NCBI GenBank assembly: GCA_965113315.1
Contig: OZ220363.1
Length of the DNA: 64,000 nt
Origin: Podarcis vaucheri
Lineage: Eukaryota
Reading direction: 5' to 3' (one strand)
A program made the translations under genes and the position numbers. Below the pieces are notes generated by a model, which saw nothing but the letters and a program-made list of their open reading frames with translations, was not told the DNA's origin and did not search any database. Shown one piece after another: positions 34,717-42,122 of the stretch. Position 1 is the stretch's first letter. Each line of letters begins with the position of its first letter.

Positions 34717-34863
34717 ATGCAAAGAGGCTTAGAGACTCCAGACCAGTTAGGTGCCAACCGGGAGACTCCAGGAATCCCTGAGATCAAAGTTGTTGTCGTA
34801 GGAGATGGAGGCTGCGGAAAGACATCGCTGCTCATGGTCTTTGCAAAAGGAGACTTCCCCAAG
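34717..34863 (+). CDS. RHOD: RhoD GTPase, coding exon 1 (P-loop)
   Basis: MQRGLETP...IKVVVVGDGGCGKTSLLMVFAKGDFPK; donor AAG|GTAAGC, phase 0. Confidence 0.92.
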
Positions 34864-35075
34864 GTAAGCCCTGTCTATCCACAGGATTGCTACCACCAAT
34901 AATATGCTTGTTATTTGCCATACTATATCCTGTCCAAGGAAAACTGTCCAACTTTCAAAGTGGGTTTGGGTTGTTGCTCTTTTTACTGCCCTGAGGTTAT
35001 CGTTCTGGGAACCTCTAAGATAGGGGTGGTGGGGAAACCTTTTTCAACTCAAGGGTTATATTCCATTCTAGGTAA

Positions 35076-35436
35076 GGTAAAGGACCCCTGGACGGTTAAG
35101 TCCAGTCAAAGGTGGCTATGGAGTTGCGAAGCTCATCTCACTTTCAGGTCAAGGGAGCCGGCATTGGTCCACAGACAGCTTTCCAGGTCATGTGGCCAGC
35201 ATGACTAAACCGCTTCTGGTGGAACGGGACACGGACAGAAACCAGAGCACATGGAAACACCATTTACCTTCCCTCCATAGTAGTACCTATTTATCTACTT
35301 GCACTGGTGTGCTTTCAAACTGCTAGGTTGGCAGGAGCCAGGACAGAGCAACCGGAGCTCACCCCATCACAGGGATTCGAACCGCAAGCCCAAGAGGCTC
35401 AGTGGTTTACGCTACAGCACCACCCGCATCCCTTTA
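35076..35436 (-). mobile_element. Sauria SINE (Squam1) in RHOD intron
   Basis: Reverse complement of the SINEs at 47544 and 62418; 13-bp TSD CCATTCTAGGTAA (35063-35075, 35437-35449). Confidence 0.9.
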
Positions 35437-35477
35437 CCATTCTAGGTAACCTTCCAGGGGTCACATGTAAGAGTGGG

Positions 35478-36077
35478 TATCAGGGTCAGGTCAGCAATGA
35501 CTCACAAGATGTCTGTGAAGCCTTTATTCAAAGAAACAAAAATGGCTCAGCCCTAGTGAGCACAGCTACCCTTCCCACCAGGTCTTGCCCTGATGAGGCA
35601 GTTGCGAGGACTAAAGGTCCCTGCCTTCCCATCGCTCTTTAAGGCTCCTCCTCCCCAGGTTCATTCCCAAGCTATCTGAAGCTCGTTTCTCTTGTCTCTC
35701 ATTGCTCCACCCTCTTCATCCCTCTGTGGGTTCTGGAAGTCCGGGGTGGAGGGGAGATTGTCGCAATAGGAGGGGGAGACCCCATGGCTTCTTCAGCAGC
35801 CTGCCTCCACTCAGCCTCTTGCCTCCCCTCCTCTCCTGCCTCCGCTTCTGCCTCTAGACTGCTCTCTGCCACAGCGTCTTCCTGCTCACTAAAGCCTGTT
35901 ACCACTTCAACTTCTGGCACCTCCTCCTTCCAGTCTGCTCCCTCTTCTTCCTCTGACTACTAATCATGCTCCCAGCACCAATTCCCTGGCTCTGAACCTT
36001 CGTCCTTTGGGAATTCCCTTGGGGGTTCCCCAGCTGGAGCCTCCCACCACTCCTCTGCGTCCAACCGGTCCATGACA
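35478..36077 (-). mobile_element. Probable solo LTR
   Basis: Minus strand starts TGTCATGG, has a purine-rich body, AATAAA near the end and finishes CCCTGATA; similar layout to 15464-15912, but no clean TSD. Confidence 0.5.
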
Positions 36078-37367
36078 CCACATGACAGAAATGGGCAGGG
36101 CCAGAGGCAATTGTGGGTGGAGCAATTAATGTAAATACTAGCTTTGTGCAGGAGGCTACACTCACCCATCCCTCTCTGTCAACCACCCAGGCAAGGAAAA
36201 GGCATCACCAGGGCTTAAGGACACATTCCAGTCTGGCAAAACTACCCAAGGAAAGTATGACTGGTGACAGGGTGGGGTCTGGGGAAAGGGTGTGTTTAAT
36301 TAATTATATTTATTAGTTTTATACATTTATGTATGGGCTGGGGAGAGTCCTAAGGGGCAGATAGAGAGGCTGGGGGTGTCACCTTTGGTCTCAGGCCTGA
36401 GTTTCCCCAACCCTGATCTAACATGGTAAATTCTACCAACAAAAACAAGGCAAACAAGCTTCTCTCACCATCTCCTTGGAGTCATGGGTAATGGGACCCT
36501 TGGTACTTCTCTGGAACAAGTTCAGTAGGGAAAACTTAAGCTGTGGCTAAGAGTACTACTGGTCAGTGTCACCAAACTTCCTTTCACAAAAAAACCCCCA
36601 TTTATTTAGTTGCCAATACTGTTGCTATACAAAAGAAGAATTTGTCTGGTGTGCATTCTCCAGTGGTGCCCACTAGGGGTGGTTGAGCGGGAGGCAGGAG
36701 CCAGAATCAAGGACAGGGAGACCCGACTGATTCTAGTTCTGCACCCATCCTCCTCTTTGCTGAGTTGCACCTGAGCAACCCTGAGGCTAAGGAGGAGGAA
36801 CCTGATAACCAGGTCCCCACCGATGGCTCTTTGTAAGCACAGGTGGGAACTGACTGAGAGCAGACTGAGGGTGATGGGTCACTGCCACATTCTTCCTAAT
36901 GGAGCAGTCACCTCTGGTGTTCTCAAAAGGTAAGCCCACCTGGCAGCAAACACAGTACATGGATCGGTAGCAGATGGTGGGGTGGGATGGCTGTGCTCAC
37001 CTGACCACCAGACTTTTCATGCTGCTTACTGGGAAGGAGAAAGGGAGGAGTGAGGCCAGTGTAGTGCAAACACAGAAGCAGAGACAATCTCATGCTCCTG
37101 CCAGCACATTTGCACTGCACCAACCTCACCCCTTCACCTCCCAGTGAGCAGCAACAATGTGGCTGGCCAGAGGTCAGGTGAGTGGCAGTGCCCCACCAGG
37201 CCATCTGCTCCTGACATTGAGCGAAGGCTCGTTTGAGCGAAATGTTGAGGAAAGGGATGCATGATAGTATCTTGAAGAAAAAATGTTGGAATGGAGATAG
37301 AATACAAAACGGTCCTTTCTCACAGACAAGGCAAAAACATCTCTTTCTCACCTTCCTCTTCTTCTAG

Positions 37368-37455
37368 GTTTACATCCCAACAGTATTTGAGAAATATTCA
37401 GCCCCCTTCCACATCAACGACAAGCAAGTGAATATCAGTCTCTGGGATACAGCAG
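37368..37455 (+). CDS. RHOD: RhoD GTPase, coding exon 2 (switch I, WDTAG)
   Basis: Acceptor [36 protein letters not shown](G); 88 nt; donor CAG|GTGTGT. Confidence 0.95.
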
Positions 37456-38376
37456 GTGTGTGCGTCAGGGTAGCTGAAGGGGAGGGTTATGGACAATCAC
37501 ATTGGAAGGTGACATATTATCAGGTCATATTATGGTGAGAATGGGTGTGCTGTCAAGTCGTAGAGGCATCATCAACCAGAAGAAAGCTGGGTGTGACACA
37601 GATTTCTGCATATTCATTGTGGCCACTGAGATCTGTCGGTTGGAAAGTAGGGTTGCACTTTCAGAAGGACAATTGATTTCACTATGTCAACTATACAATT
37701 ATATCAAAATGTGCTTTCCCTTTTGCAATAGTACATTTCTTACCATGGGCTAGCCGGGGGGGCAGGGCTTAGGGCAGAAGCCCTAGACCCCGACTTAGGA
37801 GCATACCAAGGTGCCAAGCGAGCACCTTGACTTGTGTTGTGTTGTGTTGTGTTGACTTGTGTCAACAGCCCAAGCCATTTGGATATTCCAGTGATTGGCC
37901 AGGGCTTTAATAGGAGCGCCAGTCATAGCAGCCAAAAAATCCCCGCTTTCAGTGTATTTGCATTATTTTAAATGATCATACGCTACATTTTCTGTGTTGC
38001 TGATGAGACTCCTTTTGGTTGTGTGAAGTGATACATACATCAAACAAACTAAACCTAAATTAAACTTGAGTGAGGTGTTATAGATGCTACAACCTCCCTG
38101 ACAGAGATTTTTGTTCAAAGAGGCAGTATCAATAGATTGTTAAAATGCTTGGGTGGAACCCCCTTCCCCAAAATGTCACACAGGTAGTAAGTATTACTCA
38201 CTTAGGTGGAAACTGCATTGGGAAAATAAGGATGAAAACTCTGGTTAAAGAATACAGTATGTGGAATATTTTTTCAAAAGAAATTCTCTTTTAATGTAGA
38301 GTAGAAAACAGAACAGAAGTTGAACTTAAACATGTAAATAAAACATATCTTAATATTTGGAGGGCTGGCTTATTTA

Positions 38377-38408
<32 letters not shown>

Positions 38409-41271: not shown

Positions 41272-41406
41272 TGGTACCCTGAAGTGAACCATTTCTGCAG
41301 AGGGATTCCACTCCTGCTTGTTGGATGCAAGACAGACCTAAGAAAGGACAAGGTTCTGCTAAGGAGGTTGCATCAGGACCATCTGGAGCCCATCACATAT
41401 CAGAAG
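41272..41406 (+). CDS. RHOD: RhoD GTPase, coding exon 4 (G4 CKTD, Rho insert)
   Basis: WYPEVNHFCRGIPLLLVGCKTDLRKDKVLLRRLHQDHLEPITYQK; 135 nt. Confidence 0.95.
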
Positions 41407-41595
41407 GTAATACAATCAGCAGATAGCTCCTCTGCACCAGCCTCACACTGGCAAGAGTCAGCACCAATGGACTTCCACACTAAACAATATGAATCCCACA
41501 GACATGTCTCTGGGACACAGCAGACATGTTGTTGTTTTTACTTCTGCCCATATGGTCATTCTTGCCAGAGCCCCATCCTTGCCAGGTGCTGGTAA

Positions 41596-41766
41596 TGGGG
41601 AGTGAAGCTACAGGGAACCAGGCAGAGGGCCTTCTGGGTAGTGACACCTGCCCTGTGGAAAGCTCTCCCATCAGATGTCAAGGGAAAAAGCAACTATCTG
41701 ACTTTTAGAAGATATCTGAAGGCAGCCCTATTTAAGGAAGTTTTTAATGTTTGATGTTTTATCGTA

Positions 41767-41805
<39 letters not shown>

Positions 41806-41847
41806 TTCTGTTGGGAGCCACCCAGAGTGGCTGGAGTATAAATATAA

Positions 41848-41897
<50 letters not shown>

Positions 41898-41900
41898 CAT
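41596..41900 (+). mobile_element. L2 LINE 3' end with (TAA)n/(ATT)n expansions in the last RHOD intron
   Basis: GGGAACCAGGCAGAGGGCCTTCT...CCCATCAGATGTCAAGG...CTGAAGGCAGCCCT; reverse complement of 47913-48090. Confidence 0.8.
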
Positions 41901-41954
41901 TTATTATGACATTCTCTTCTTCTCCTCTTTCCCCCTCCACACACACCTTTATAG

Positions 41955-42122
41955 GGAGAGTCTTTGGCCCGGAATCTCCATGCAGTTGCCTACCTTGAGT
42001 GCTCAGCTCGTTTCCATGAGAACATCATCGACGTATTCACAGAGGCTTCCAGAGCAGCCTTGAGTACCATGAAGAAGAAGAAACGCAGGTGCAAACCCAA
42101 AAGGACTTGCCTGCTTTCCTGA
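41955..42122 (+). CDS. RHOD: RhoD GTPase, coding exon 5 (G5, polybasic tail, CaaX CLLS, stop)
   Basis: GESLARNLHAVAYLECSARFHENIIDVFTEASRAALSTMKKKKRRCKPKRTCLLS*. Spliced CDS is 648 nt (215 aa). RhoD-diagnostic residues and KDM2A adjacency support RHOD over RHOF. Confidence 0.93.
   Translation, partial: GESLARNLHAVAYLECSARFHENIIDVFTEASRAALSTMKKKKRRCKPKRTCLLS

Follow-up and report, generated by a model that had tools for sequence, protein, structure and literature searches.

The locus studied here, a RHOD gene upstream of KDM2A in the lizard Podarcis vaucheri, raises the question of when the Rho GTPase RhoD separated from RhoF. PMC6356296 (2019) presents RhoD as therian-restricted and among the youngest Rho GTPases and PMC3521688 (2012) places it 'in mammals', both citing Boureux 2007, and PMC8305917 dates RhoD/F to early vertebrates with the two unseparated. 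The window that we analyzed, the whole stretch of 64,000 nucleotides, corresponds to C1:85,808,001-85,872,000 of the P. vaucheri genome. We find, with very little doubt, that the gene is a true RHOD orthologue and that the age of RhoD reaches back at least to crown bony vertebrates. Our preferred reading, to which we assign a probability of about 0.78, is that the gene encodes an intact GTPase that split from RHOF before crown bony vertebrates, likely in the second round (2R) of whole-genome duplication, and that is predicted to act as a farnesylated actin/endosome switch, as in human RhoD.

The lizard gene and its RhoD-type residues

The gene model of a preliminary description of this locus, made from the DNA letters alone, was reproduced exactly: five coding exons on the + strand (Table 1) yield 215 aa followed by a stop, the introns are GT..AG in 4/4, and the motifs quoted earlier are all present in the protein. 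The G1-G5 boxes are intact and are complemented by the Rho insert, a basic tail and a C-terminal CAAX motif, as expected for a Rho-family small GTPase. For the near-identical Podarcis lilfordi protein P0001, from which the window protein differs at 3/215 positions, PF00071 (Pfam) was matched with E 1.4e-47, and the best PDB match was human RhoD (E 5.5e-79), ungapped over residues 13-199. The junction of exons 4 and 5 is spanned by a single transcript-like contig, the source run of which is only guessed to be RNA. In two raw RNA runs, the mean depth was ~0.1-2 in bins with exons 1-4, and the first mate was mostly on the minus strand, an orientation compatible with low + strand transcription, in a read set swamped by repeat-derived reads.

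The same gene is present as RhoD in RefSeq for other lacertids (P. muralis XP_028595236, P. raffonei XP_053255268, Zootoca vivipara XP_034981401 and Lacerta agilis XP_033014799), with lacertid records separated from the window protein by 3-9 substitutions (five equal-length records). Analogously, the 90% cluster of the P. lilfordi protein comprises seven members, six of which are named RhoD, the P. lilfordi record itself having a generic Rho name. That automated annotation may already say RHOD was thus correctly anticipated, and the lizard gene is already known: RefSeq/UniRef entries under the name RhoD cover lizards, snakes, turtles, crocodilians, birds, caecilians, salamanders and coelacanth. 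As databases already carry these names, the novelty is lower than first implied. Residue 206 (42090-42092 region), situated in the basic tail, is Cys in the window protein and in the RefSeq P. muralis protein P0266, and Arg in most lacertid records; it is possibly a palmitoylation site or a neutral polymorphism.

To compare residues between the two subfamily members, 325 proteins were fetched, and 271 were classed by their best BLAST match of >=65% identity to a reference row (173 RhoD and 98 RhoF; 54 dropped). The classes are similarity-based, redundant and bird-rich, and the counts below, taken over the proteins carrying each motif, are therefore descriptive rather than independent events. 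At the switch-I site, Thr occupies 149/149 RhoD-side and Ser 82/82 RhoF-side proteins, and at the site before DTAG we found Trp in 153/153 and Tyr in 83/83, respectively. The lizard protein displays Thr and Trp, and sharks display Ser and Tyr. Considering that Thr and Trp are also the states of Ciona and of RhoA/B, RhoF is the derived copy at both sites. Moreover, the CAAX motif terminates with Leu in 4/158 RhoD-side vs 72/77 RhoF-side proteins, and with Ser in the lizard. RhoF/Rif is of the same subfamily, matches RhoD in its internal exon sizes and is placed alike with respect to a KDM2 gene, but is distinguished by its switch-I Ser, the Tyr preceding DTAG, a Leu-ending CAAX motif, SETD1B/TMEM120B as flanks and membership of the RhoF clade, none of which applies to the lizard gene.

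The preliminary description saw RhoD features mixed with RhoF-like ones, a view that did not withstand this comparison. FEK (110/149), RPLSY (140/157) and CYDV (54/142) are frequent on the RhoD side and are therefore not RhoF marks, and GQD is rare in both classes (10/153 RhoD-side and 4/83 RhoF-side), thus not being RhoD-diagnostic. The tail, also put forward as RhoF-like, is indeed Lys/Arg-rich, but its final Ser is of the RhoD type. A mosaic of RhoD and RhoF is consequently not supported: the 'RhoF-like' residues of the lizard protein are the common state of non-placental RhoD. Human RhoD (PDB 2J1L, 7KDC) agrees with the lizard protein in clade, in Thr and Trp at the diagnostic sites and in the non-Leu CAAX motif, and differs in having FER, RPLFY and CFDV where the lizard has the widespread states. 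The last 18 residues include nine K/R in the lizard vs five to six in three placental RhoD.

A separate RHOF near SETD1B, ORAI1 and KDM2B, without which the preliminary description would have regarded the window gene as a relocated RHOF, was recovered at C38:39,063,700-39,073,511 (+). It is located between SETD1B and TMEM120B (both named from translated frames, with a SET domain found in the former and without Pfam match for the latter), followed by an ORAI gene and then KDM2B (+). RHOD and RHOF are the only two RhoD/F-like loci detected in the genome by two exon searches; the internal exons of RHOF are 88/110/135 nt, the same sizes as in RHOD, and each gene precedes a KDM2 gene with which it shares its orientation. 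The lizard RHOF also encodes eight consecutive lysines directly before the GTPase domain (C38:39,063,700-39,063,882).

Age and origin of RHOD and RHOF

Phylogenies were computed from chosen, mostly full-length representatives (52/307, then a smaller set), with partial and redundant records excluded, and with Ciona savignyi H2ZLV0, the sole usable tunicate outgroup from a 50% representative search. In a 36-row tree with Ciona and RhoA/B as outgroups, the lizard protein is placed in a RhoD clade reaching from bichir to placentals (support 95/90), and three chondrichthyans fall within the RhoF clade (93/91); the tool warned that long branches meet at the root of this tree. An unrooted tree separates RhoD from RhoF with 100/100, and the amniote RhoD clade obtained 95/92, 97/93 and 98/92 in three trees. 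Congruent with these groupings, the approximately unbiased (AU) test rejected uniting therian RhoD with placental RhoF (p 1.4e-72), the lizard protein with squamate RhoF (p 6.6e-4) and a duplication on the tetrapod stem (p 6e-5). The earlier naming of the gene as RHOD is therefore upheld by its clade, shared with mammals, and by its location upstream of KDM2A, and nesting within squamate RHOF, which the preliminary description had regarded as fatal to its view, was not observed. The therian-only origin it argued against is indeed in print; as a therian-specific RhoF duplicate, RhoD would be absent outside therians and nested in RhoF, neither of which is the case.

The distribution of the two genes was assessed by three homologue searches (best 120 each) complemented by cluster look-ups. 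Proteins named RhoD exist in databases for coelacanth (UniRef H3AWX2) and, among tetrapods, for squamates, turtles, crocodilians, birds, caecilians, salamanders, marsupials and placentals, and RhoD-side proteins named 'RhoF-like' for sterlet, paddlefish, reedfish and Polypterus. One RhoD-type and one RhoF-type protein were present in each of coelacanth, paddlefish, reedfish, Polypterus, axolotl and Pleurodeles. As coelacanth, paddlefish and bichirs carry both genes, the split predates crown bony vertebrates, and the amniote age proposed in the preliminary description, while correct as a minimum, was understated. The reedfish RhoF-like gene is on a 170.8-Mb sequence and reedfish KDM2A at chr10:163.1 Mb, lengths that are at most compatible with a common chromosome. 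In NCBI/UniRef, the labels RhoF, RHOF or RhoF-like are attached to many RhoD orthologues from outside mammals despite RhoD being their best match, examples being P0008, P0011, P0013, P0014, P0018, P0156, P0161, P0209, P0263, P0295 and P0296. The ESM Atlas added nothing. A clownfish protein, P0356 (Amphiprion ocellaris XP_035812852), is highly diverged and RhoD/F-like, with a C-terminal half closest to RhoF (59-65%), an N-terminal half about equally far from several Rho groups, and the RhoD-side letters Thr and Trp at the two class-separating sites; it is unplaced in the tree and may represent either a fast-evolving duplicate of teleost RhoF or what is left of a RhoD.

How the two genes came about is illuminated by their neighbours. 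In Lamb 2021 (PMC8040251), FBXL19/KDM2A/KDM2B, ORAI2/3/1 and ANKRD13B/D/A are ohnologue trios of one paralogon, paralogon 2 (human 7/17, 16, 11q13 and 12q24), KDM2A being assigned to quad C and KDM2B to quad D, and the quads being ordered so that A and B separate from C and D at the first round; at human 11q13, KDM2A is found at 67.12 Mb and ANKRD13D at 67.29 Mb. The C/D placement of KDM2A and KDM2B dates this pair to the second round. The lizard genome recovers the KDM2A/KDM2B/FBXL19 and ORAI trios of that paralogon, mapping to C1, C38, C34 and C37: a third PHD_4 gene adjoins another ORAI gene at C34:15.69-15.73 Mb, matching the expectation for FBXL19/ORAI3, and a further ORAI gene is present at C37:12.64 Mb. 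ANKRD13 and RAD9 searches of the genome returned no match on C38, and the KDM2B block thus appears broken up in the assembly. RHOD and RHOF accordingly reside in paralogous blocks with curated ohnologue neighbours. As KDM2A and KDM2B are curated ohnologues, a second-round whole-genome-duplication origin of RHOD and RHOF is likely, yet unproven, and the suggestion in the preliminary description of a RHOD/KDM2A-RHOF/KDM2B paralogon gains from the neighbours, the shark placement leaving proof short. Katoh and Katoh are said to have called FBXL11-RHOD and FBXL10-RHOF paralogous loci already in 2004, in Int J Mol Med.

According to the preferred reading, a KDM2 gene and an ancestral RhoD/F gene located upstream of it would have been doubled together with their chromosome. 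The RHOF copy would then have exchanged the switch-I Thr for Ser and the nearby Trp for Tyr, with a Leu end of the geranylgeranyl type, and RHOD would have kept the ancestral switch I, with a mostly Ser/Thr/Cys end of the farnesyl type; placental RhoD would have sped up later. It is less parsimonious to assume a later duplicate that happened to land upstream of the sister KDM2 gene and to share its orientation.

Several observations weigh against this duplication history. Sharks placed outside bony RhoD and RhoF remain acceptable (AU p 0.176), and this arrangement becomes preferred (86/85) upon removal of the two diagnostic columns. With Ciona as single outgroup, the clade of sharks and RhoF obtains 57/83, and with only RhoB/RhoG as outgroups in a 57-row tree, the root falls inside RhoD beside therians, with RhoF and sharks united at 100/100, which is likely long-branch attraction. 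Addition of the rogue clownfish protein P0356 collapses the deep branches, and no lamprey or amphioxus outgroup was recognised in the 50% representative search, where 8/150 rows were looked up by name. The residue classes, being descriptive, temper the site counts. RhoD-type proteins of shark, gar/bowfin, teleost, lungfish, frog and monotreme were not among the matches listed (best 120 per search), and several losses must consequently be assumed. RHOD and RHOF are also missing among the listed rows of the PMC8040251 table, from which pairs are excluded by design. Neither were they found in the supplements of PMC12954441, PMC4504502 and PMC6193309, nor in 12/29 files of PMC3238295, in searches that relied in part on two Ensembl ids that may be wrong. 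Since the shark placement shifts with columns and outgroups, crown bony vertebrates represent the firm lower bound of the split.

The shark placement is also the foundation of the most serious alternative, where RHOD is old but arose as a small-scale duplicate on the bony-vertebrate stem after sharks, the shark gene being pro-orthologous to both copies and the RHOD switch I a reversion. The tolerated sharks-outside topology, its gain when the two columns are dropped and the lack of a shark RhoD among the matches all fit this scenario. On the other hand, the new copy must then have inserted itself immediately before the ohnologous KDM2 gene and with matching orientation, and sharks share four derived states with RhoF vs a single site where they alone retain the outgroup state; overall, we consider this history unlikely, though deserving of attention. 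Far less credible is hidden paralogy, with therian RhoD a recent RhoF duplicate as published (Boureux 2007 as cited in PMC6356296 and PMC3521688) and the reptile/fish gene another old lookalike paralogue. Therian RhoD is indeed long-branched and drew the root in the RhoB/RhoG-rooted tree, but its union with placental RhoF is the most strongly rejected topology, the amniote RhoD clade is recurrently well supported, and the downstream neighbours of the lizard gene match human 11q13 (KDM2A and ANKRD13D). Human RHOD lies there upstream of KDM2A. Equally hard to sustain is that the lizard gene represents a squamate RHOF that was relocated or duplicated, or that gene conversion made it a chimera of RHOD and RHOF. 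Its identity of 56.7% to its own RHOF, compared to 52-54% to placental RhoD, and the RHOF or RhoF-like labels of many orthologues could suggest so, but the AU test on squamate RhoF, the identities to RhoD of turtle (72%) and of marsupials (61%), the RhoD-type letters at both diagnostic sites and CAAX end, and the commonness of the 'RhoF-like' letters in most non-placental RhoD speak against it.

Extending the second-round origin, we lean modestly towards RHOD and RHOF being 2R ohnologues that split jobs at the origin of jawed vertebrates, with RhoF derived at the effector face and with predicted lipid anchors that differ between the two proteins in all bony-vertebrate groups sampled; RHOD would then have seemed mammal-specific only through repeated loss in sharks, teleosts and frogs, the usual model-genome groups. 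The dating shifts the origin of RhoD to the ancestor of bony vertebrates or earlier and reverses the usual polarity at switch I, which alters how RhoD-specific biology is read. The outcome modestly corrects a point that reviews make in passing, a correction already implicit in database labels, and not a new system. No title revising the therian date was found in the literature, judged mostly from titles; subscription journals, supplements and ohnologue databases may hold one. Passages of PMC5499878 and PMC5425256 contained nothing relevant.

Evolutionary rates and predicted function

Measured from the amniote RhoD node, distances amount to 0.15 for turtle, 0.23 for alligator, 0.43 for the lizard protein, 0.48 for wombat and 0.73-0.77 for placentals, and amniote RhoF tips to 0.15-0.27. 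In relative-rate tests, which are uncorrected and not mutually independent, placentals were faster than turtle in 9/9, than alligator in 9/9 and than the lizard protein in 5/9 comparisons, and the lizard protein differed from wombat in 0/3. The RhoD stem is longest in placentals (0.41), followed by therians (0.24) and squamates (0.21), and the strongest acceleration is on the placental stem. It is because placental RhoD evolved fast that lizard RhoD is about as similar to its own RHOF as to placental RhoD, and that many orthologues are mislabelled RHOF. Judging from the node distances, the lizard gene is not an especially ancestral copy, turtle being closer, and the earlier idea that it keeps the pre-mammalian state had to be abandoned: the squamate stem is itself 0.21, and the lizard distance is similar to that of wombat.

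CAAX motifs with a Ser, Thr or Cys end direct farnesylation, and those with a Leu end geranylgeranylation; based on its terminal residue, lizard RhoD is predicted to be farnesylated. Human RhoD, the only one of known biochemistry, is thought to be farnesylated (PMC8253491) and is described as having high intrinsic nucleotide exchange and a role in control of filopodia and endosomes (PMC9029563, PMC3521688, PMC8253491 and PMC13236570). By analogy, lizard RhoD would likely be a fast-cycling farnesylated switch for filopodia and endosome movement. The RhoD proteins of turtle, salamander and sturgeon offer slow-evolving comparators for asking if fast cycling, farnesylation and endosome control are old or placental.

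Neighbourhood of RHOD

The gene order on C1 is RHOD-KDM2A-GRK2-ANKRD13. The CpG island and KDM2A gene placed downstream on the same strand in the preliminary description are both there, with the CpG-rich stretch preceding the first coding exon of KDM2A (Table 1) and showing CpG observed/expected ratios of 0.79, 0.71 and 0.55 per kb. KDM2A continues past the window end to about C1:85.911 Mb, with JmjC, CXXC, PHD, F-box and leucine-rich repeat exons detected; a downstream exon matches PDB KDM2A (E 6e-32), and the exons pair one by one with the paralogue at C38:39.18-39.26 Mb. Further along C1 follow a gene at about 85.93 Mb that we take, from its motifs, to be GRK2, an ANKRD13 gene at 85.98 Mb, left untyped as to paralogue, and a RAD9 exon at 86.17 Mb.

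Table 1. Positions in the window of the RHOD coding exons and of the downstream KDM2A features.
Feature	Position	Strand	Details
RHOD coding exon 1	34717..34863	+	147 nt; start codon, P-loop; GT donor after
RHOD coding exon 2	37368..37455	+	88 nt; switch I, Thr54 and Trp75 as RhoD/ancestral states
RHOD coding exon 3	40557..40666	+	110 nt; switch II
RHOD coding exon 4	41272..41406	+	135 nt; G4 box, Rho insert; joined to exon 5 in one contig
RHOD coding exon 5	41955..42122	+	168 nt; G5 box, polybasic tail, CAAX ending Ser, stop
CpG-rich stretch, putative promoter and 5' non-coding exons of KDM2A	50001..53000		from CpG observed/expected and GC per kb
KDM2A first coding exon	54821..54862 (end approximate)	+	found by motif

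Upstream of RHOD, which borders it, an olfactory-receptor cluster includes the window frames 7574-8521 (-) and 16338-17327 (-), both Pfam 7tm_4, and seven further loci within the 30 kb preceding the window (C1:85,778,665-85,807,943), one of these loci apparently being split in two. Human RHOD presumably has different upstream neighbours, and synteny therefore seems broken on this side of the gene.

A LINE-like (long interspersed element) sequence occupies 22661-26289 (-) and consists of two open frames, one of 731 aa that begins endonuclease-like and a second of 484 aa; a related copy is found at C38:39.19 Mb. Fragmented reverse-transcriptase-like frames at 60427-61553 (-) are what we take to be, probably, the remnant of an RTE-type LINE.

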